Positions 23,606 to 33,159 are shown, numbered from the stretch's first letter. The stretch is DNA of 64,000 bases from Turneriella sp. (GCA_965279515.1 CBDIID010000003.1:4288001-4352000), one strand, 5' to 3'. Notes: generated from the letters alone by a model not told the origin. Program-made: numbers and translations.

Positions 23606-24306
23606 ATATGTTTTTTTGTCTCCCATGGCCTTATGACGGCCTATGTAATAAAGAACGGACATGCAAAAATCATAAAAGATCTCTACCGATAGCTATAGTG
23701 TGTGTGTTTCCCGTGATATCCTGTCACGAAGTTTCAGGTTCATTGGTTTTTGGCAACACAGCGCACCTTCACTTTACTGCCGTTGCCCCCGCTATTCGCT
23801 TTACTACCGTTTGTATATACCTGGCCTTGGTTGCTAAAATCGACCAAGAGCGCATAGTTTTGCCCGCAAAACGAAGGAGAATCGGACGACGACCAAAAAA
23901 CTTCATCCGTATATTTCTGGCCGTTTACGCCGGGGGGGGGATTGCCAGACGTACTCGGAAAGTATTCTGTATTAACGGAAGCTAGTTCGTCGATCTCTAC
24001 AATACTTACAAGTTCATCAATTGAGGGAAGCCTCCAGCTAATACCTGCTAATTTGAGTTCTGAGCAGTACTTTGAAGCAGAATACCAATTGGTGCTGGTG
24101 CCATTGCCCTCGCAAAAGCGTTCATTCCGTTGCCCGTATGCGCATTTTTGCCATTTTAAATTGGTCTTTTTATCTGTGATTGTTCCGTCTCCGTTATCAA
24201 CATAGCGTTTCGCCATCTTGCGGGTCGGTGAGCTCGATAAATTGCCGCACTGAGGTACTTGGAATTCATAATGTTTGCTGCTCGCACAGGCCGTCACAAA
24301 TCCTAG

Positions 24307-25547
24307 CAGGGTGTTGAAAAACGCATAGAATCGGGTATCCGTTCAAACCATAAATACGATTGGACGGGCACGTATTTTGCGCCTTGCCACCTTCGCTTCT
24401 GGGCGCAACGGGCTCATAGCTTGCCAGCCAAAATAACCAGATTGGCTGCCGCCATCGTGAATATGAAATGAAAGCCAACCTTAGCTTTGCCGCAGTAGCG
24501 TGTTTTACGGATACCACCGATGGTTTTGCCCCAGCCAAATAATTCTTCAATCCGTTTGCGAACGCGTTGGCTGATTGCATAGCCGGTACTTCGCGCCGTT
24601 CGGCGATCAAGGCCTGGTGTTTTTCGTGTTTCAATCATGGCGATGTGCGGTTTTATCTTCAATGACCTGAGCGATGCTACCATGTCTTTCGTATGGTAGC
24701 CTTTGTCTGCACCCAATGTTCGCGGCTTGATTTTGCGCTTGCGGAGATTCTTTAATAGAGCAAGCAAGCCACGGCGTTCTGCTTTGCCATCAGCAGCCTC
24801 CAGGTTTGCCGCAACACAAAGACCGGTACGATTTTCCATGACGACATTACCGCAGTAAGACAGCTTTGCTTCTTTGCCGGGGCCCTTGCGTGCAAGCATG
24901 GATTCGGGATCAGTAGTACTGGCATGTGTTTCATTGCTGCGTTTTTCATCGTGAAAATTCACGATCGGATTGCGACTGGTGTCTATTGGCTTTTCGCGTT
25001 TTACGTCTGCATCTTTTTGTTTCGGCTTAAAGCTTTTAAGCGATGCCCATGCTTCGATCAATGTGCCGTCAGCGGTGAAGTGTTCATCAGAGACCAGATT
25101 CTTGCTTTGCGCAAAACGAACGACCTGCGCCAGAAAGCTATTTGCGATTTCCTGATTGAGGAGGCGTTCGCGGTTTTTGGCAAAAGTACTGTGATTCGGA
25201 ACAGGATCATTCGGCATCAGATCAAGAAACCAGCGGAAGAGAAAATTGTAGCTGAGTTGTTCACAAAGCTGGCGCTCCGAACGAATCGAATAAAAAGCGA
25301 TCAGAAGCGATGCCTTCAGCAAAAACTCCGGCGGTATCGAGGGTCTGCCAGCATCGGCGTACATCTTATCAAGTGCTCCATCCAGTTTGCCGAGCACGTC
25401 ATCGGCCATAGTCTTGATTTTACGCAATGGATGCGACGGCGGAATCAGATCTTCCGCAGAGAAATTGTAGAGAAAATTCATCTGAGCTTTTTGGTCACCG
25501 CGCATTGGCTCAATATAATCAAAATTAAGGACTTCTTCAACACCCTG
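24307..25547 (-). mobile_element. IS5-family insertion sequence, 1241 bp
   Basis: Terminal inverted repeats CAGGGTGTTGAAAAA / TTCTTCAACACCCTG (14 of 15 match); CTAG on both flanks (24303-24306, 25548-25551). Confidence 0.92.
24414..25505 (-). CDS. IS5 family DDE transposase
   Basis: HPLR, GRPSIPPE, SERQL, FRWF, DGTLIEAWAS, ADKGY, R.RIE..FGW.K. Confidence 0.95.
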   Translation of the reverse strand: MRGDQKAQMNFLYNFSAEDLIPPSHPLRKIKTMADDVLGKLDGALDKMYADAGRPSIPPEFLLKASLLIAFYSIRSERQLCEQLSYNFLFRWFLDLMPNDPVPNHSTFAKNRERLLNQEIANSFLAQVVRFAQSKNLVSDEHFTADGTLIEAWASLKSFKPKQKDADVKREKPIDTSRNPIVNFHDEKRSNETHASTTDPESMLARKGPGKEAKLSYCGNVVMENRTGLCVAANLEAADGKAERRGLLALLKNLRKRKIKPRTLGADKGYHTKDMVASLRSLKIKPHIAMIETRKTPGLDRRTARSTGYAISQRVRKRIEELFGWGKTIGGIRKTRYCGKAKVGFHFIFTMAAANLVILAGKL

Positions 25548-25898
25548 CTAGTGTTTGGCAGACGATTTGAAATTTAACAGAAGCATGGTTCTTCATAAAA
25601 TCACCTCAAAGTACATTTTCTGGAGCAACCAGAGAGTCTAAAGGAAGCAACAATTTGTCAACTTTATTGATGTTGTCTTTTTTAATTGACCATGTTGAAA
25701 ATCGACGTGATTGTTTTTCTGGGGATTGTGTTCACTAGAGGCTGTCGCATTATTCTTATTGTTACTCTGTATGGTTGGGTATAAAAGTAAGTGAAGATTA
25801 GTGAGAGTCTACGGATGCTCAGATCTAAATCGTATGCCAGGTCGTATTACTGGCGTAAATCAAAAGGCCGTGTAGATAAAATATTAAGGCGGTGAATT

Positions 25899-26710
25899 TT
25901 GAAAACTGACAACGTTGTGTTACGATCTCTACCTTTGGTTTTCATAGGATTCTTAACGGGCTGTCAGAACGTACCGATAATCGGTCAGAATAGTGATTAT
26001 GAAATTGTGTATCTCGCCGTTGGAGGTGTGCTGTCGAACAATGATGATGGTGCGGCCATTTCAGGTGCCGAAATTACCATTTCACCGAGTGACATCTCTA
26101 TTATTAAATCGGGTACAGCCAAGAACCTTGTGCTGCAAGACCATAATGGCTCTGTGGGTGCGAATTCCGTAAATTTATCGGATGTTACTAGATTAGTTAC
26201 AGATTCTACCGGGAAATTTTTGGGATCTATTCCTTTGCCGGTAAAGAAGCTGAAAGATGGAACTGGGTACGAAGTAACTCTGAAAGTAAAGGCCCTGAAG
26301 GGCCGATAGCCGGCCCGGTCTACGCTTATGCTGGCATACAACAATCTTTCACCATCAAAAAAAGCAATGGGAGTGAAAAACCTTTATTTAATTTTGCCGG
26401 CTACAGCGTCTCTCTTCAGGGATCTGCAAGTTTTGATTTTGGCGTTGGTGCTTTTGGCTTGGATATATCAGCGAAAAATTGGATTAAGAATACTGTGGAT
26501 AATATAGCCTCGCGGATTTCTTTACCACTATGCCCAAATACCCTTTATTACTGTGTTGGAGCTTCAGGTCAGCAGGTATCTTTGAAGAAAATTTGTGATG
26601 GTAACCCATATGATTGCTCTAATAACGAGGATGAAACAGCACCGGTATTTGGTGGATGTCAGAATTTCTGTTCTACCCAATCGCAGTTGTATCGTCATTG
26701 TTGTGAATGA
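25899..26710 (+). pseudogene. Probable frameshifted lipoprotein gene (ORFs 25899-26309 and about 26300-26710) with a Cys-rich LDLa-like C-terminus
   Basis: Lipobox LTGC; the second frame is stop-free across the first ORF's end and reads PIAGPVYAYAG...ICDGNPYDCSNNEDE. Confidence 0.6.
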
Positions 26711-27524
26711 TAGGTTTTGGCAAGCGACGACCGCTATATTAAAGTTGGAAAAGTTGGAGATAATTTTGTCGCGATTCCTTATTGGCAGCATAATATTTTT
26801 TATTACAAATTTTGCTTGGGGAAAATCTGTTGTTGCTGATCGATCGAAGCTAAATACTGATAGTATCAGGAATAATCAGCTGATACTTCGTTTCGAATAC
26901 TTGCCTTTAAGCTTTTCCCGCAGTCATCAGACGCTTACGATTGATAACAAAGTATATCCGAATGATACAGCGGCATTATTAGGCGGAAGTATTGAGTATC
27001 GCCGGCTTAACTTTTTTCAGCAAAATCTTTTTTTGTTTGATCGCTTTCAGCATTTAGCGGGGAGTAAGGCGTTTACGGTTGAAGGTGAAACGGAAAAAGC
27101 TGAATTGAAAGGGTCTTTGGGCATTTTTTTTGGTTGGTGTAGGTCTTGTGTTTCCGTTGAAAACGCGTTATTTATCTCTCCTCATGTAGGAATAGGAGGC
27201 CATTTTGCAAGTATGGCTTTATCACACCCGACCCAAGTCCTCTACAAACAGACGATGCAAAGGTACGGTGGGAGCATCTTTTTGGGTGTGAATTTGGGCG
27301 TGGGCTTATCTAATAATCTCGTTATAGAGATGCGTCTTGGTGTAACAAACCTTTTGTATTCTGGCTATTTCGGCAGTCTGTTATGCTTTTTAGTTAAATC
27401 CGGCCAACCACTGCCTGTGCCAAACCCTCAACACGAAAACTTTCGGGGTCTGCCGCAAACGGCTCGTAACGGCTGTTTAAAGAATAAAGGAGGATCTTTT
27501 TCCCGGAGCGGACCATCCGCTTGA
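26595..27524 (+). CDS. Outer-membrane beta-barrel-like exported protein, probably 3'-truncated; true start uncertain
   Basis: Signal-like IIFFITNFAWG; alternating beta-strand segments; the last 131 nt overlap the lexA-like gene antisense. Confidence 0.5.
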   Translation: MMVTHMIALITRMKQHRYLVDVRISVLPNRSCIVIVVNDRFWQATTAILKLEKLEIILSRFLIGSIIFFITNFAWGKSVVADRSKLNTDSIRNNQLILRFEYLPLSFSRSHQTLTIDNKVYPNDTAALLGGSIEYRRLNFFQQNLFLFDRFQHLAGSKAFTVEGETEKAELKGSLGIFFGWCRSCVSVENALFISPHVGIGGHFASMALSHPTQVLYKQTMQRYGGSIFLGVNLGVGLSNNLVIEMRLGVTNLLYSGYFGSLLCFLVKSGQPLPVPNPQHENFRGLPQTARNGCLKNKGGSFSRSGPSA

Positions 27525-27996
27525 TATAGGCCTTACCGCCGTCGGCGCAGGCGATAATACTGCCGTCCGGCGCCTCGACCGCTCTCTCGAACAGCACCAG
27601 ATCTCCGTCGAGAATACGCGGTTCCATCGAGTCGCCATGCGCCCTGACAAAGAACGGATTTTGCAGGTTTACGCCGAGAAACTGCGGTGGCAGCTCGAGG
27701 CGCTCTTCGACGTCGCCCGAGAGAATCGTGCCCTCGGGGCCGCAGCGCGCGAGGCCATAGAGGTTCACGAGAAACAAGCCCGACTCTTCGGGCGGTTGGC
27801 GCACGCGGTAGTCGGCGGGGTTCATGGGATTGCGCTCGATCATGCCTTTCTTCTCTAACTGCTGTAAATGGAAGAACACGAGGCTCGGAGTCGAGAGGTT
27901 GAGATCGTCTTGCAACTCACGGATTGTGTAGCCCTCGCCAGCGAGGCGGGTGAGCCGCGTGAGCAATTTTTTTTGTGTCGGATGTAGCTTTTTCAT
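27394..27996 (-). CDS. lexA: LexA-like transcriptional repressor (wHTH + S24 peptidase)
   Basis: TIREL...L.LSTPS.V..HL.QLEKKG.I.R helix-turn-helix; cleavage loop GLARCGP; catalytic GDSM (Ser) and YIKR (Lys). Confidence 0.88.
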   Translation of the reverse strand: MKKLHPTQKKLLTRLTRLAGEGYTIRELQDDLNLSTPSLVFFHLQQLEKKGMIERNPMNPADYRVRQPPEESGLFLVNLYGLARCGPEGTILSGDVEERLELPPQFLGVNLQNPFFVRAHGDSMEPRILDGDLVLFERAVEAPDGSIIACADGGKAYIKRMVRSGKKILLYSLNSRYEPFAADPESFRVEGLAQAVVGRI

Positions 27997-28016
27997 AGTG
28001 TTTCGCCGTTTTTTAA

Positions 28017-28073
28017 TTTTGTAGAACAAAAATAGAACATTTTAGTTGCCGTTTTATTCTTGTTCTATATATT
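28017..28073. promoter_or_regulatory. Divergent promoter with candidate LexA operators
   Basis: TTTTG-N5-CAAAA (28017-28031); GAAC-N7-GAAC (28024-28038); inverted copy GTTT-N7-GTTC (28051-28065) lying between TTGCCG (28046-28051) and TATATT (28068-28073). Confidence 0.65.
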
Positions 28074-28099
28074 GGCTGTAAAGCAAAAAAGGGGTATTT

Positions 28100-28834
28100 A
28101 TGTGGCACACGAAAACAGATTTTAACGAAGGGGTAAATCCCTCAGCGGAGCTCACCCTCGGCAATGCCTATAAACTGTGGAACTACCGCAGCCACGAGCG
28201 TTCGATCGCCTATATGACCGGTACCTCGGCGATTTTTCCGCTCGCGCAGGTCTGGCAGACCCGCATGGCCATCGAGGGCATCAAAACGCATACTATAGAC
28301 TGTGCGATCCGCTTCAATACCTATGCGATCGCCGAAGAGGCCTTGCGCCTCGAGATTCCGCCTGAATCGATCCACGACCAGATCACCGTTACCCGCGCAT
28401 TCACACCATACCAGATTCTCGACGCAGTGCAAGAGTTGAAAAAAAATGAAGTCGTCTTCATTCTTGCGCCTGCGAAACAGTTTTTTGACGGCGATGTCGC
28501 CTTCGATGAGGGGCTGTTTTTAATCCAGAAGCTGGTGCGGTTTTTGGCCGATGCGCATGAACGCGGGGTGGCGCTCTTCGTCGTAGAGAAGCCGTCATAC
28601 GCCGCCCCCGCGTTCAGCACATTTCTTTCCGACATTCGCCCGATCACCGACAAAAGCCGGTGGGAACTCTACCGGCTCGGCATGGATAATGCCTACCGGT
28701 TAAAGTACATCACCAACGGCAAGCTCCACAGAGATATTCTGAGCCTGCCGCAGCCCAAGGCCGACGAACGACCACGGGGGGGATCACTCAAAGCGCAAAA
28801 TTTTTCATCACAAATGCAGTTTGCTTTCACTTAA
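28100..28834 (+). CDS. Inactivated RecA/RadA-like protein (iRadA type, PolB2-associated)
   Basis: IDCAIRFNTYAIA...I.V.RAFTPYQI segment of the RadA/Rad51-like fold; no Walker A GKT. Confidence 0.75.
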   Translation: MWHTKTDFNEGVNPSAELTLGNAYKLWNYRSHERSIAYMTGTSAIFPLAQVWQTRMAIEGIKTHTIDCAIRFNTYAIAEEALRLEIPPESIHDQITVTRAFTPYQILDAVQELKKNEVVFILAPAKQFFDGDVAFDEGLFLIQKLVRFLADAHERGVALFVVEKPSYAAPAFSTFLSDIRPITDKSRWELYRLGMDNAYRLKYITNGKLHRDILSLPQPKADERPRGGSLKAQNFSSQMQFAFT

Positions 28835-28843
28835 GGAGGATCT

Positions 28844-29041
28844 ATGAAAAAGAAGAACCATCTCATCCGCAGCGAGTCCGCAGAAAAGCTGCACTCGAGG
28901 CTGCTCAGGCTCTCCCTGTGGGATTCCCTGAACAGTAAGCGCAAAGAGCCGATGTCCTTTGCCTTCAAGATCACGCCGACGAGCGTGCTCAACCGTGTGC
29001 TGGCAGTTGAATATATGTCGCGCCACCGCGAAGACAACTAA
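28844..29041 (+). CDS. Small hypothetical protein in the polymerase operon
   Basis: Strong RBS AAGGAGGA; stop overlaps the next start (TAATG). Confidence 0.6.
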   Translation: MKKKNHLIRSESAEKLHSRLLRLSLWDSLNSKRKEPMSFAFKITPTSVLNRVLAVEYMSRHREDN

Positions 29042-29316
29042 TGGGCCGCACCGTCAGCGCCTATTCGATGGTGATCGATAAGGTCATTAGTCGTTTCGAC
29101 AGCTACCGCCGCACGTTGCGCCGCGAAGACCGCGAGGCCTTCGACGATCTCATGCGTATCGCGCGCATGCAGGTGCAGGCGGGCGTGATGGCGCAGCATC
29201 CCAATGCCTTCGATTCGATGAGCATGGCGATGCTGATTCACCTGCAGCGCGAAATTACCGAGCTAAAAAAAGAAAGAAATTTCAAGGGAGAACTTTATGG
29301 GGAAAAGACAGCTTAA
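29041..29316 (+). CDS. Small PolB2-associated protein (PPB2/arCOG07300-like)
   Basis: MGRTV...YRRTLRREDREAFD.L signature of the small gene found next to PolB2. Confidence 0.78.
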   Translation: MGRTVSAYSMVIDKVISRFDSYRRTLRREDREAFDDLMRIARMQVQAGVMAQHPNAFDSMSMAMLIHLQREITELKKERNFKGELYGEKTA

Positions 29317-29410
29317 ACTCAAGACGAGTAAATCACAGTCGATCGCCACGGCGTTGCACGTGAGCGTTCCGCTGCTTGTTTATTGGTTGATTTTGCTTTT
29401 AGATAAATAG
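29297..29410 (+). CDS. Putative 37-aa single-pass membrane peptide
   Basis: Manual translation MGKRQLKLKTSKSQSIATALHVSVPLLVYWLILLLDK; AAGGGAG RBS upstream. Confidence 0.45.
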   Translation: MGKRQLKLKTSKSQSIATALHVSVPLLVYWLILLLDK

Positions 29411-29418
29411 GGAAAAAT

Positions 29419-29481
29419 ATGAAGAAAGAACAATATTCAATCGACCCCGATCACGACGACGATATACCGTTGGCTGCTTAG
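29419..29481 (+). CDS. Putative 20-aa acidic peptide
   Basis: Manual translation MKKEQYSIDPDHDDDIPLAA; fills the gap up to 9 nt before the polymerase start. Confidence 0.35.
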   Translation: MKKEQYSIDPDHDDDIPLAA

Positions 29482-29490
29482 ACTTCGTAA

Positions 29491-31821
29491 ATGCCACAAC
29501 CAACGGCCCTCAGGGGAGACTGGAGCTTCGAGGGCTTTCTGTTCGATATCTATAATGTCGGTAACCAGATCTATATCTGGGCGATCGATGATGAGAAGCG
29601 GCTGTTTTTAGCCGTTGACGAGTATTTTCCCGTGATCTATGCGCACGGGAATGCCAATGTCCTCTATACGCTTTCCGAGCATATGCAAAAGACCGGTGCA
29701 GTCACCGGAGTGCCGCGGTTTGAGAAGAAGATTCTTTTCTATCCCAACCGCATCGTCGATGCCCTGCGTCTCGAGATCGCGCATCCGTCGCTTTTGCCCA
29801 ATATCCGCCGCAAGCTGTTCACGCTCTACCACAAGTTTGATATCTATCACTCCGATCTCGATCCGGTTACGGGTTATATGTCTGACCGCGAGCTCTATCC
29901 CCTGGCGCCGTTACGCATACAGACAAGAATTGTGGGGCCTGCTAACCGTGTTGTGCGCATCGAAGCCACGCAGCGCTCGACCGATTTTGAGTATCGTTTT
30001 CCCGATCTGCGTATTTTGCAGATGGCTTTGAAACACAGCCACCGGTTAGGCATTGGGGCACATAATCCACTATTGCTCGAAATTGCCGGCCGTAAATACA
30101 CGATCGCCGAACAAAACCACGAAGACTATATCCATAAGATCAACCAGATTATGCGCGATGAAAACCCCGATTGCATTCTGTCTTCGTTCGGTGACCAGAT
30201 TATTTTTCCATTCTTGTTTGCCGCGGCGCAGGAATCAGGATTAAAACTCGAGCTCGACCGCGATCTGACATCTTCCATTACCCGCAGTATTAAAAGAAAG
30301 GGGGCGAGCTTCAATACCTATGGCAGCTGGATCTTCCGCGCCGCTTCGTATCCGCTCTATGGCCGCTGGCATATCGATCAGCAGAACTCCTTCACCTTCA
30401 AACATACCGACCTGCATGGCACGATTGAGCTTGCGCGCATCAGCCGCATGCATGTACAGCGCGTCGCGCGCGCGTCGACGGGTAATGCGCTCACCGAAAT
30501 GGAAGCCGATGTCGCGATCCGTAAGGGGTACCTCGTGCCTTGGCAAAAAAGTGCGCTTGAGAACCGCAAGACCTGGTATGAGCTGCAGCTTTTCGACAAG
30601 GGGGGGCTGGTCTATCAACCCGATATCGATAAAGGCATTGTGCGCCACAACGTCGCGCAGCTCGATTTTTCCCAGATGTACCCGAGCATCATGCATATCC
30701 ACAATATCTCCCCTGAGACGGTGAATTGCCCCTGCTGCGCAGCTGAGCAGGATATCCCCCGAGTTCCCGAGATCGGTTACCATATCTGCACCAAACGCCG
30801 GGGCGTGGTTTCTGACGCGCTGGAGCATATACTTGCGCGGCGGAAATATTATAAAGAACAGCTTACCCGAAAAGACATGAATACAGAACAGCGGAAGATT
30901 TATGAGCAGCGCGTCGACAGCCTGAAATGGATGAATGTCGTCAGCTTCGGCTACCTGGGATTTCGCAACGCGAAATTCGGAAAACTCGAAAGCCATGAGA
31001 GTGTGACGGCTTTCGGGCGCGATAAACTTCTGACAGCAGTGCAGCTGGCAGAAGAGCAGGGCTTTGAACTCGTCCATGCAATCACCGACTGTATCTTTAT
31101 TCAGAAAAAAGACGAAACTGCGTTTATTGAAGGCGAGCTTGAGAAACTCTGCGCCGACATTCTGCGGGAGACCCGGGTCGAGATGAGCTGCGAGGGCATC
31201 TATTCCTGGGCATTGTTTTTACCTTCGCGCAACGATGATAAACTTCCCGTAGCGAACCGTTATCTGGGGCGCTTTACGACGGGCAAACTCAAGATGCGTG
31301 GCGTGGTCGTGCGCCGCAAAGATACTCCCGGGTATATCGGCCGGTTCCAGCGGGACATTATTGCCTTACTGCAGACCTGTGTGAATGCCCGCGCTGTCGC
31401 GGGCCTCTATGAAACGGCACATACGATTTATCAGAACCGGCTCGAGGCACTCGAAGCCGGAAACGTACCCTGGTCAGAGCTTTTACTGCGCCGCACGGTC
31501 AGCCATGAACTCGAGGAATACAGCGTCATGAACGGCACATCGCTCAGCATGCGTGAACTGAAAGAACTGGGGCTCACTGTATCACCGGGAGAGAAGGTGA
31601 GGTATATCGTCGTTGAACAGAAACACTACTCTCAAAGGGGGCGTTATATGTCCGAAGAAAAAGCGGCAATGCTGGGGCGTGATTACCTGCCCTATGACAA
31701 AAAGTTTTACGCAAAGCAGCTCTACGAGGCCTTTGCCGAAATTTTTGATCCCTTTATCTCTGCCAAAATTGAATCTCCTGCCGGGCAGATGCAGCCCGAG
31801 ATGTTCCGGCGGCCTGCCTGA
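29491..31821 (+). CDS. Family B DNA polymerase, PolB2-like
   Basis: DKGG.VYQP, motif A DFSQMYPSIM, CPCC..HIC insert, motif B KWMNVVSFGYLG, motif C HAITDC, RG...RRKDTP, PGEKVRY. Confidence 0.9.
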   Translation: MPQPTALRGDWSFEGFLFDIYNVGNQIYIWAIDDEKRLFLAVDEYFPVIYAHGNANVLYTLSEHMQKTGAVTGVPRFEKKILFYPNRIVDALRLEIAHPSLLPNIRRKLFTLYHKFDIYHSDLDPVTGYMSDRELYPLAPLRIQTRIVGPANRVVRIEATQRSTDFEYRFPDLRILQMALKHSHRLGIGAHNPLLLEIAGRKYTIAEQNHEDYIHKINQIMRDENPDCILSSFGDQIIFPFLFAAAQESGLKLELDRDLTSSITRSIKRKGASFNTYGSWIFRAASYPLYGRWHIDQQNSFTFKHTDLHGTIELARISRMHVQRVARASTGNALTEMEADVAIRKGYLVPWQKSALENRKTWYELQLFDKGGLVYQPDIDKGIVRHNVAQLDFSQMYPSIMHIHNISPETVNCPCCAAEQDIPRVPEIGYHICTKRRGVVSDALEHILARRKYYKEQLTRKDMNTEQRKIYEQRVDSLKWMNVVSFGYLGFRNAKFGKLESHESVTAFGRDKLLTAVQLAEEQGFELVHAITDCIFIQKKDETAFIEGELEKLCADILRETRVEMSCEGIYSWALFLPSRNDDKLPVANRYLGRFTTGKLKMRGVVVRRKDTPGYIGRFQRDIIALLQTCVNARAVAGLYETAHTIYQNRLEALEAGNVPWSELLLRRTVSHELEEYSVMNGTSLSMRELKELGLTVSPGEKVRYIVVEQKHYSQRGRYMSEEKAAMLGRDYLPYDKKFYAKQLYEAFAEIFDPFISAKIESPAGQMQPEMFRRPA

Positions 31822-31893
31822 GTTCCGCTTTGGCAGGATTTCTGTCTATTCAGAATATCTGTCGTTTCAACTTGCTACCTTCAGGACTATTTT

Positions 31894-33159
31894 TTGCTGA
31901 AATCTCTTCTCGAAACCATGCCGGCCCCGGTTCTTTTCACCACTGCCTTGTTTTTCATGGTTTCCTGCCAACCCAATGTATTGCAGAAAAATCTCGCCCG
32001 TGTCGACCAGGTGCTCGATCAATATGTGCAGTCGGGGCGCGTCGCCGGTGCCGTGGCGCTGGTGTTGCGCGACGGCAAACTATTTTATGAACGAGCTACC
32101 GGCTGGAGTGACCGCGAGGCCGCCCAACCGATGCGCATGGACAGTATTTTCCGCATCGCGTCGATGACGAAAGCGATGACGAGCGTGGCGGCGCTCATGC
32201 TTGTCGAAGAGAAAAAACTCGCGCCGCATGAGAAAGTCGGAAAGTATATCCCCGAGTTTGAAAAACAGCAGGTGCTCGCGAAAGACCTTCTCACGGGTGT
32301 TGTGAGCCTGCAACCCGCCACGACTGAGATGACCATACACCATTTGCTGACGCACACTTCCGGATTGTCGTATGGCGCCGAGCCTGAGCTCGCCGAAATT
32401 TTCCGCAGTGTGGGCTTAGGCCCCGCACTGGGCGCCAACTGGAATCTCTCAGCCCTTAAAGAATCAATCTGTGAGACCGTGGCAACGCTGGCAAAGTTGC
32501 CCTTAGCCGGACAACCCGGCGGCCCCTGGCTCTACGGTTACAGCACAGATGTCCTGGGTTGCGTCGTTGAGCAGGCGTCAAAAATGACGCTGGAGCAATT
32601 TTTCAAAAAGCGGCTCACCGAACCTCTCGGTATGAAGGATACGCATTTTTTTATGCCCGCCGCCGATATTCCGCGGCTCACGGCGCTCTATGGTACGGGA
32701 AAAAACGGTCTTGCCGAGCGCTCCGGCGGGAGTAAAACTTATCCCTATGTCGAAGGGCATCGCAAAAGTTTTTCGGGTGGGGCTGGTTTAGTTTCGACCG
32801 CCGGTGATTATGCGAAGTTTCTTGAAATGATCCGGCGCGGCGGCGAATATAACGGCAAGCGCCTGCTCAAGGCCGAAACGGCGAAGCTCATGACTTATTC
32901 GCAGGGCGGGGAAAATTCTCCCACGCCCTCTGGTTTCACTTACGGTTTCGAAATTTCCGCGCATCCGGGAGTTACCGGGCCCGAAGCGGTGGCGTCGTAT
33001 GGCTGGACAGGTGCGTACGGAACTTTTTATCGCGTCGATCCGCGCCAGAAACTGGTTATTATCCTCATGACACAGCTGGCACCCAACGGTACTGACATCC
33101 GCGACCGGTTTTGGCAGGCGCTTTACGATGCGCTGGCCGATGCCAAAGCTCTCTATTAG
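31894..33159 (+). CDS. Serine hydrolase (beta-lactamase class C-like), probable lipoprotein
   Basis: FRIASMTK (SxxK), HLLTHTSG, W.Y, GGAGL.ST..DY, GW.G. Confidence 0.9.
   Translation: MLKSLLETMPAPVLFTTALFFMVSCQPNVLQKNLARVDQVLDQYVQSGRVAGAVALVLRDGKLFYERATGWSDREAAQPMRMDSIFRIASMTKAMTSVAALMLVEEKKLAPHEKVGKYIPEFEKQQVLAKDLLTGVVSLQPATTEMTIHHLLTHTSGLSYGAEPELAEIFRSVGLGPALGANWNLSALKESICETVATLAKLPLAGQPGGPWLYGYSTDVLGCVVEQASKMTLEQFFKKRLTEPLGMKDTHFFMPAADIPRLTALYGTGKNGLAERSGGSKTYPYVEGHRKSFSGGAGLVSTAGDYAKFLEMIRRGGEYNGKRLLKAETAKLMTYSQGGENSPTPSGFTYGFEISAHPGVTGPEAVASYGWTGAYGTFYRVDPRQKLVIILMTQLAPNGTDIRDRFWQALYDALADAKALY

Follow-up and report, generated by a model that had tools for sequence, protein, structure and literature searches.

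A PolB2 Mutasome Operon of Turneriella sp. Predicted to Be Repressed by a Divergently Encoded LexA

Introduction

The genes for the family B DNA polymerase PolB2, for the arCOG07300 protein PPB2 and for an inactivated RadA (iRadA) have been found together in several bacteria, in some of them with lexA in the predicted operon (Makarova et al. 2014, PMC4104785). PolB2 was held to be inactivated in that study, and regulatory or initiation roles were proposed. More recently, the bacterial gene order was described as always iRadA-PPB2-PolB2, sometimes with interspersed genes, and an enrichment of lexA was noted: the 1823 PolB2 neighbourhoods contained 108 LexA, of which 31 belonged to 'group 4' (Timinskas et al. 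2025, PMC11791011). In the same work, the trio was modelled, for 40 systems other than the present one, as a heteropentameric mutasome, PolB2:iRadA:PPB2x3, analogous to DNA polymerase (Pol) V. Here, a locus of this kind is analyzed in a 64,000-nt stretch of DNA from Turneriella sp. (GCA_965279515.1 CBDIID010000003.1:4288001-4352000), referred to as the window, in which a lexA gene is divergent from an operon with iRadA, PPB2 and PolB2.

The published table of PolB2 neighbourhoods contains many Spirochaetota rows, among them a 'group 4' row for Turneriella parva that reads LexA, iRadA, gap, PPB2, gap, PolB2, and in the supplement PPB2 stands beside the Turneriella PolB2 (PMC11791011). For PolB2, a 2026 survey cites archaeal experiments only (PMC12926913), and no experimental paper on a bacterial PolB2 was found in the literature searched.

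The Turneriella locus resembles the described bacterial PolB2 (G2) operons in having the same three proteins in the same order, the MGRT arm of PPB2, ITD in place of the DxD of polymerase motif C, the D(K/R) loop and an adjacent lexA. It differs from the Turneriella parva row in that the two gaps, unnamed there, correspond here to orf65 and to a DUF1564/ribbon-helix-helix (RHH)-like gene, which is decayed in the window, and in that candidate clamp motifs occur on iRadA and PolB2, while none is flagged in that row. Dpo2/PolB2 of Sulfolobus islandicus is a homologous polymerase with an inactive exonuclease and with Ile for the first Asp of motif C, and it is co-encoded with PPB2 and iRadA. However, it is subject to Orc1/Cdc6-type control and linked to PCNA (PMC11791011), whereas a putative LexA operator and beta-clamp-type motifs are found here; the experiments concern the archaeal enzyme only. 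E. coli umuDC (Pol V) and lexA-imuA-imuB-dnaE2 are likewise SOS-repressed, multi-subunit error-prone modules with a RecA-like or RecA-derived partner. They may be regarded as functional analogues, but their catalytic subunits belong to families Y and C and not to family B, and there is no homology beyond the distant RecA/RadA fold, so that the likeness is one of analogy and not of membership.

The locus is probably a bacterial PolB2 mutasome operon (iRadA, PPB2, PolB2) that descended from the archaeal Dpo2/PolB2 system and is under direct repression by LexA. The class as such has been described in silico, including for Turneriella, and its function may be predicted from archaeal experiments and published models. 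The present analysis adds a predicted operator, identities for the two gap genes, a putative coupling relay, a pair of clamp-like motifs and the finding of two repressor/operon versions within one genus.

Results

Layout of the Locus and the Three Core Proteins

ORF listing and sequence reading of positions 27394-31821 placed lexA on the minus strand, divergent from a plus-strand series of open reading frames (ORFs) consisting of iRadA, orf65, PPB2, two mini-ORFs and PolB2 (Table 1). Consecutive plus-strand ORFs are spaced by 9, -1, -20, 8 and 9 nt. The original prediction of a LexA-like repressor divergent from a tightly packed operon was borne out by the ORF listing, Pfam and NCBIfam, with every element at the stated coordinates. 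Positions 26800-32300 are spanned, with identical sequence, by contigs from four sequencing runs of one study, from which this genome may derive. RNA data sets were not among the sequencing runs listed as containing the locus.

Table 1. Features of the LexA-PolB2 locus, numbered from the first nucleotide of the window.
Feature	Position	Strand	Description and evidence
lexA	27394..27996	-	200 aa; winged-helix LexA DNA-binding domain and S24 autopeptidase; Pfam, NCBIfam
SOS box A	28022..28038		TAGAACAAAAATAGAAC; GAAC-N7-GAAC direct repeat upstream of lexA; putative autoregulation site
SOS box B	28051..28067		inverted relative to box A and differing from it by 2 mismatches (minus strand: TAGAACAAGAATAAAAC); fills the spacer of the promoter-like site before iRadA
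iRadA	28100..28834	+	244 aa; Rad51/RadA fold without Walker A and without the N-terminal domain; alignment, AlphaFold2, Foldseek
orf65	28844..29041	+	65-aa orphan; two predicted helices; dN/dS 0.14
PPB2	29041..29316	+	91 aa; arCOG07300 family; small, helical; MGRT N-terminal arm
orf37	29297..29410	+	37 aa; probable remnant of a 147-151-aa DUF1564/RHH-like gene; overlaps the end of PPB2 by 20 nt
orf20	29419..29481	+	20 aa; probable C-terminal remnant (...DIPLAA*) of the DUF1564/RHH-like gene; ends 9 nt before the PolB2 ATG
PolB2	29491..31821	+	776-aa family B DNA polymerase; Pfam, NCBIfam, PDB matches, motifs

PolB2 matched the Pfam family DNA_pol_B (5.8e-34). The best NCBIfam matches were the PRK05761-type models NF004416 and NF004418, with 339 and 322 bits, both under their cut-offs, and the Pol II models NF004421 and NF004422 reached just 26 bits (cut-off 570) and 18 bits (cut-off 1103). 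On named control genomes, NF004416 matched in E. coli and in four archaea, in no case above its cut-off, and is therefore non-discriminating. Among the PDB matches, the best 35 were archaeal-type PolBs or engineered variants, led by 5mdn (2e-36) with Pyrococcus and Thermococcus-type enzymes next; the best 60 of 69 included no chain of Pol II. The sequence of motif A, DFSQMYPS, is intact. In motif C, HAITDCIFI, the first Asp of DxD is lost (ITD) and the second is kept; the Exo I position (FDIYN) is without its Glu, and an LDRD loop corresponds to the D(K/R) motif. By eye, the surroundings of motif C are nearly identical to those that the published table gives for Turneriella parva. Scores and motifs thus support siding PolB2 with the archaeal PolBs and not with E. 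coli Pol II, and the PolB2-style motifs that had been predicted for the polymerase were recovered.

The closest relatives of PolB2, with 64-83% identity, are Turneriella, Leptospiraceae and Spirochaetota records, followed by Leptospira species with 46-50%, and a homologue is present in 26 of the 34 genomes of the order as defined by GTDB. Two operon types were distinguished within the genus of the window. In type A, which includes the window and 9 other genomes, the polymerase of the latter is 65-75% identical to that of the window. In type B, represented by 3 other genomes and by a second copy in genome G030, the identity is 44-46%.

For iRadA, neither Pfam nor NCBIfam gave a match. In a 19-sequence alignment, LTGxS occupies the Walker A position and GxxxxGK[ST] is missing. 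A profile search against the PDB returned 25 matches at E <=10; 20 of these, including the top 16, are RadA, Rad51 or DMC1, all of them weak (E 0.019 to 1.7). The AlphaFold2 model (predicted local distance difference test (pLDDT) 82, predicted template modelling score (pTM) 0.79) had its best Foldseek PDB matches in RAD51, DMC1 and RadA, with E-values of 7.5e-9 and weaker and template modelling (TM) scores of 0.52-0.61. The protein of RecA/RadA fold without Walker A that had been proposed from the sequence was thereby identified. The small helical protein of MGRT type is PPB2. It begins with MGRTVSAY, and MGRT is invariant in all 21 aligned homologues from related loci.

The order iRadA, PPB2, PolB2 on one strand was kept wherever all three genes could be seen, which was the case in 22 related loci. 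Purifying selection acts on iRadA, orf65 and PPB2, with median ratios of non-synonymous to synonymous substitution (dN/dS) of 0.13-0.26 (iRadA 0.26, PPB2 0.13).

LexA and Its Predicted Operator Pair

The repressor matched Peptidase_S24 (PF00717; 2.5e-20) and LexA_DNA_bind (PF01726; 2.8e-8). The residues for catalysis and cleavage are in place, namely Ser123 in GDSM, Lys159 and the site Cys85-Gly86. A Cys-Gly cleavage site is also used by UmuD. The start was assigned to the ATG shared by the relatives; an alternative TTG at 28029 would extend the gene across the operator. LexA is 84-92.5% identical across 7 related cassettes, and its nearest named homologues beyond this kin belong to Patescibacteria (45-51% identity). 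In a whole-genome search with TIGR00498, it was the sole canonical LexA, the other match being a protein with an XRE-type helix-turn-helix (XRE-HTH) and an S24 domain. The latter (C3:508031-508465, locus L001), of 252 aa, was rejected as a second LexA, since it is CI-like and has an excisionase-like ORF as neighbour; it probably represents a CI-type repressor of a prophage.

The spacer between lexA and iRadA holds a block that is conserved in all five loci first compared, with TAGAACAAAAATAGAAC as its core. This 17-mer occurs in 3 exact copies in the 4.9-Mb genome, and 2 further sites have 2 mismatches; in the reversed genome used as control, no exact copy and a single site within 2 mismatches were present. 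The five sites of the genome comprise box A, box B, a position about 30 bp before recA, a position before a PA0069-family radical-SAM gene, and one abutting the start of a tyrosine recombinase. Among the 9 related type-A genomes, 8 have an exact box A at the cassette and one differs by 1 mismatch; all 9 carry a partner box with 1-2 mismatches on the opposite strand, about 29 bp off. The pair sits in a 100-bp divergent promoter. Before iRadA, the only promoter-like site on the plus strand is TTGCCG-16-TATATT at 28046-28073, the 16-nt spacer of which is filled by box B.

The box is a direct repeat, GAAC-N7-GAAC (GTTC-N7-GTTC on the other strand), with TGTTCTA-N4-TGTTCTA as a longer unit. Its position, conservation and regulon content point to a LexA operator, so that the control of the operon by LexA put forward in the original prediction gained support from a definable, if predicted, operator. 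The half-site and the 7-nt spacing are those of the alphaproteobacterial (Caulobacter) LexA operator GTTC-N7-GTTC (PMC9578287 Table 1, PMC8565304), but the predicted box occurs here in a spirochaete lineage and with the longer repeat unit. It is also unlike the LexA1 box of Leptospira interrogans, which is the palindrome CTnnACnnnnGTnnAG (PMC4756842). In the available parts of the published accounts PMC4104785 and PMC11791011, no description of a LexA operator of bacterial PolB2 operons was found.

Some relatives carry insertions in this region. In one of them (L004:2770-3060), an element of about 290 bp with inverted repeats lies between lexA and box A, and in two others (L006:4185-4285 and L009:4150-4250) a GC-rich hairpin, GGGGAGGGG...CCCCTCCCC, lies between the promoter and iRadA. 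The boxes are untouched in all three.

Other Genes Preceded by the Box

The PA0069-family radical-SAM gene (494 bits; C3:4249241-4250358) is located about 39 kb before the window. Its exact box lies within a promoter-like TTGACG...TATATG, and the box also precedes the orthologue in 2 relatives. The tyrosine recombinase (C3:2926093-2927215) has 366 aa and is Xer-like or integron-integrase-like, below the NCBIfam cut-offs. The box precedes its orthologues in loci of 8 relatives (L058, L059, L062-L065, L067 and L072). By its box, the recombinase looks SOS-controlled, which is reminiscent of the LexA-controlled integron integrases. The gene for the one Y-family polymerase of the genome, located elsewhere, has no box match even with 3 mismatches allowed.

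In the upstream regions of recA (L080-L084), relatives have GC-rich hairpin insertions where the genome of the window (G000) has the box. Thus, LexA control of recA seems to have been gained or lost within the genus.

orf65, the Mini-ORFs and a Putative Translational Relay

Extra small ORFs beyond the canonical trio were part of the original prediction. For orf65, this proved right: it is a real, lineage-specific orphan gene. The view of the other peptides as extra subunits did not hold, since they correspond to pieces of a larger gene that is intact in relatives.

orf65 is preceded by a strong Shine-Dalgarno sequence, AAGGAGG, and overlaps the start of PPB2 with its stop codon (TAATG). It is present in 10 of the 34 genomes of the order, all of one genus. 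These include each of the 9 related type-A genomes but not the 3 genomes that have type B only. The median dN/dS of orf65 over 29 pairs is 0.14. An exhaustive profile search of 1.84 billion representative proteins returned 3 clusters, all of orf65's own family; Pfam and NCBIfam gave no match, and the ESM Atlas gave no usable one. AlphaFold2 predicted a two-helix hairpin with low confidence (pLDDT 69, pTM 0.41), for which Foldseek found no PDB match at E <= 0.001. A descent from PPB2 by duplication with loss of the MGRT arm was rejected (hhalign probability 0.2%), as was a relationship to the RHH-like orf150 (0.13%). Complex prediction of iRadA and three PPB2 with orf65 as partner gave a score of 0.00 with an uncertain fold of the partner, a result that is silent on binding either way. 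Judged by its position and its coupling to PPB2, orf65 may encode an accessory subunit or a regulator.

The two mini-ORFs can be aligned with three parts of a 147-151-aa gene located between PPB2 and PolB2 in relatives, namely its start, its middle helix and its C-terminal tail. orf37 comprises the first residues and the helix 'VSVxLLVYWL' of this RHH-like gene and overlaps PPB2 by 20 nt, as does the intact gene in relatives. The gene is intact in six of them (L005, L006, L009, L031, L038 and L039), with weak Pfam matches to RHH_5 (5.7e-4) and DUF1564 (0.14), and 9 of 30 matches of an Atlas search with it carried DUF1564. It has collapsed in L004 as well, to the same two pieces, and in L036 just an in-frame mini-ORF of 22 aa is left. 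The dN of the remnants between the window and L004 is 0.30-0.34, i.e., three to five times that of the neighbouring genes, which fits a relaxed constraint on the peptide sequence. On these alignments, the mini-ORFs are remnants of the RHH-like gene and not extra subunits.

An ORF with a ...P(L)AA tail stops 1-27 nt ahead of the PolB2 ATG in all 8 type-A loci, and in none of them can a Shine-Dalgarno sequence be recognized before this ATG. PolB2 may therefore depend on the ORF ending just upstream and be translated by termination-reinitiation off it. The remnants would then have been kept open because the translation of PolB2 needs them.

Two Repressor/Operon Types within One Genus

A lexA gene divergent from iRadA-orf65-PPB2-...-PolB2 was found in all seven type-A loci with enough flank (L004, L005, L006, L009, L031, L036 and L038). 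Both orf65 and a canonical lexA are missing from the type-B loci and from plain Leptospira and Spirochaetia loci. Type B consists of iRadA-PPB2-PolB2 divergent from an XRE-HTH/S24 repressor followed by a SRAP-like gene (L077 in G025, L078 in G024, L079 in G031 and L037 in G030); the SRAP-like label is a reading of the N-terminus MCGRFG and not a family match. The type-B spacer carries the palindrome AGTACA-N7-TGTACT. Both operon types are present in G030.

With LexA as protein query, no match was obtained in the type-B-only genus members G024, G025 and G031 (93, 99 and 82% complete). In these genomes, TIGR00498 matched just the S24 half of a 216-239-aa XRE-HTH repressor adjoining their own PolB2 operon. 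Among the genomes tested, canonical LexA was thus found only alongside the type-A operon, and the type of repressor tracks the type of operon.

Clamp-Like Motifs on iRadA and PolB2

The C-terminal tail of iRadA ends with QMQFAFT in the window, and an extension of the form QM(Q/E)F(A/S/Y)F is present in all 8 type-A sequences and in none of the 11 other aligned sequences. The C-terminus of PolB2 in the window reads QMQPEMF (QPEMF). Type-A PolB2 of relatives end with QLSLF (twice), QPSLF, QPEIF, QPQFF or QHQMF, and that of L005 is without a clear motif. Upon inspection alone, both tails resemble motifs for binding the beta clamp, for which the consensus is QLxLF (PMC11791011 section 3.3.3). Such motifs are described as rarely present on both partners (PMC11791011).

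Discussion

The concept of a LexA-controlled mutasome is not new for such loci, since related bacterial loci had already been noted by comparative genomics (PMC4104785, PMC11791011), as the original prediction had stated. For the present locus, it can be spelled out in some detail. Upon DNA damage, RecA bound to single-stranded DNA would trigger the self-cleavage of LexA at Cys85-Gly86 by Ser123 and Lys159. Both promoters would open after this cleavage, and the operon would be read as one mRNA, the ORFs of which would be translated as a relay across gaps of 9, -1, -20, 8 and 9 nt. The products would assemble as PolB2:iRadA:PPB2x3 according to the model of Timinskas et al. and would dock on the beta clamp via the C-terminal Q-x-x-hydrophobic-F motifs of iRadA and PolB2. 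Devoid of proofreading, the complex would extend across lesions, as shown just for Sulfolobus Dpo2. orf65 could be a lineage-specific accessory of the complex or of its regulation, and the mini-ORFs would be leftovers of a dispensable RHH-like gene that are kept open for PolB2 translation.

Several observations weigh against this interpretation. On the regulatory side, LexA scored 92.9 bits with TIGR00498, which is under the cut-off of 110.95, and promoter-like sites in the scanned region were not above chance (4 compared with a shuffle mean of 4.0). Conservation is lacking for the box before recA, which was seen in G000 and, in a form with 2 mismatches, in G030; no box was found upstream of recA in the cassette-bearing genomes G021, G027 and G029, nor in G025. 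recA as a LexA target conserved across the genus is therefore not supported, and the LexA regulon looks very small. Regarding the polymerase, the first Asp of DxD is lost, and the activity of such degraded forms has been shown just for Sulfolobus enzymes, according to the citing papers PMC11791011 and PMC12926913. The probable placement in the bacterial PolB2 clade draws on family scores and on a published tree with the Turneriella parva sequence, and the published table marks no clamp motif in the Turneriella parva row (PMC11791011).

These points bear on three other interpretations. LexA could be a cassette-borne and largely dedicated repressor that is gained and lost with the type-A operon, making the locus a self-contained module, and not the genome-wide master of the SOS response. 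This is possible, although it is considered somewhat less likely than not. It is suggested by the lack of a LexA match in the type-B-only genomes G024, G025 and G031, where TIGR00498 recognizes only the S24 half of the XRE-HTH repressor beside the PolB2 operon, and by the box targets: the best conserved are the cassette and one recombinase, and 3 out of 4 related genomes with the cassette that were examined have no box at recA. The Patescibacteria as source of the nearest named LexA homologues beyond the kin (45-51% identity) point in the same direction. On the other hand, the box in this genome also precedes recA and the PA0069 radical-SAM gene, and housekeeping neighbours on the lexA side (NuoG-like, Cys-rich) are conserved in five further type-A loci, with partial conservation in one more, which fits vertical inheritance. 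Moreover, just 14 genomes of one genus were compared, and these are kin and not independent. The dedicated repressor is kept as a rival because of this close kinship and because of the box before recA in the genome of the window. The pairing of repressor and operon type and the small number of conserved targets nevertheless favour the self-regulated module of the original prediction more than had been expected.

The loss of the first Asp of motif C and of the Exo I Glu raises the question of whether PolB2 is catalytically dead, the trio then acting as a damage sensor, a clamp-bound regulator or a replication-restart factor, in line with the inactivation and the regulatory or initiation roles assumed by Makarova et al. 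(PMC4104785). This appears improbable, since archaeal forms with the same substitution have activity and are needed for targeted mutagenesis in archaea (PMC11791011, PMC12926913), since PolB2 of the window retains motif A as well as the second Asp of motif C, and since the protein is intact and recognizably conserved across the order. Least credible of all, to the point that it can hardly be entertained, is a polymerase of E. coli Pol II type or of phage origin with unrelated neighbours. Bacterial family B polymerases are often Pol II orthologues (general knowledge; PMC12926913), but here the Pol II models gave 26 and 18 bits in comparison with 339 and 322 bits for the PRK05761 models, the best 35 PDB matches are archaeal-type PolBs or engineered variants with no Pol II in the best 60 of 69, and the iRadA and MGRT-bearing PPB2 partners stand in canonical order. 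The direct LexA repression of a bacterial PolB2 mutasome operon remains the preferred interpretation.

A bolder view goes beyond this interpretation and, taken as a whole, is rather unlikely, so that it is offered tentatively. The S24 repressor and the PolB2 mutasome might form one exchangeable unit that exists in two versions: version A with LexA, the GTTC-N7-GTTC operator and iRadA-orf65-PPB2-(RHH gene)-PolB2, and version B with XRE-HTH/S24, SRAP and iRadA-PPB2-PolB2. The SOS response would then essentially be the private circuit of a B-family mutasome, with orf65 as a fourth, lineage-specific subunit and with both protomers of the beta clamp gripped via the motifs of iRadA and PolB2.

For bacteria, PolB2 mutasomes have been predicted as a third route of SOS mutagenesis, beside Pol V and ImuABC. 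With its single canonical LexA, a clear operator pair and one Y-family polymerase elsewhere in the genome, the locus is a compact test case. The natural variants within one genus, i.e., with or without orf65, with or without the RHH-like gene, and with a different type of repressor, could serve as comparative controls. In addition, a spirochaete lineage would use a direct-repeat LexA box, unlike the palindrome of Leptospira interrogans.

Genomic Surroundings of the Locus

On its lexA side, the locus shares with five other type-A loci a gene for a Cys-rich protein of 155 aa and one for a NuoG-like Fe-S protein, and a sixth (L031) has the small gene only. In the window, these neighbours are parted from lexA by a stretch of about 3.7 kb with lower GC content (23700-27394; 0.46 compared with about 0.53) that is absent from the related loci. 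It contains an Lcl_C-domain gene (23740-24297, minus strand), a DUF772/DDE transposase gene (24414-25505, minus strand) and orphan ORFs, one of which, with 309 aa, overlaps the 3' end of lexA.

On the PolB2 side, a beta-lactamase-family gene follows in the window and in L004, and a HAD hydrolase and a 2Fe-2S thioredoxin-like protein are encoded there in five other loci. On contig C2 (19790 bp), one 17-mer recurs at positions 1121, 7747 and 14373. As the spacing is exactly 6626 bp, this contig may be a threefold concatemer of a 6.6-kb unit, e.g., a small plasmid or an assembly artefact.

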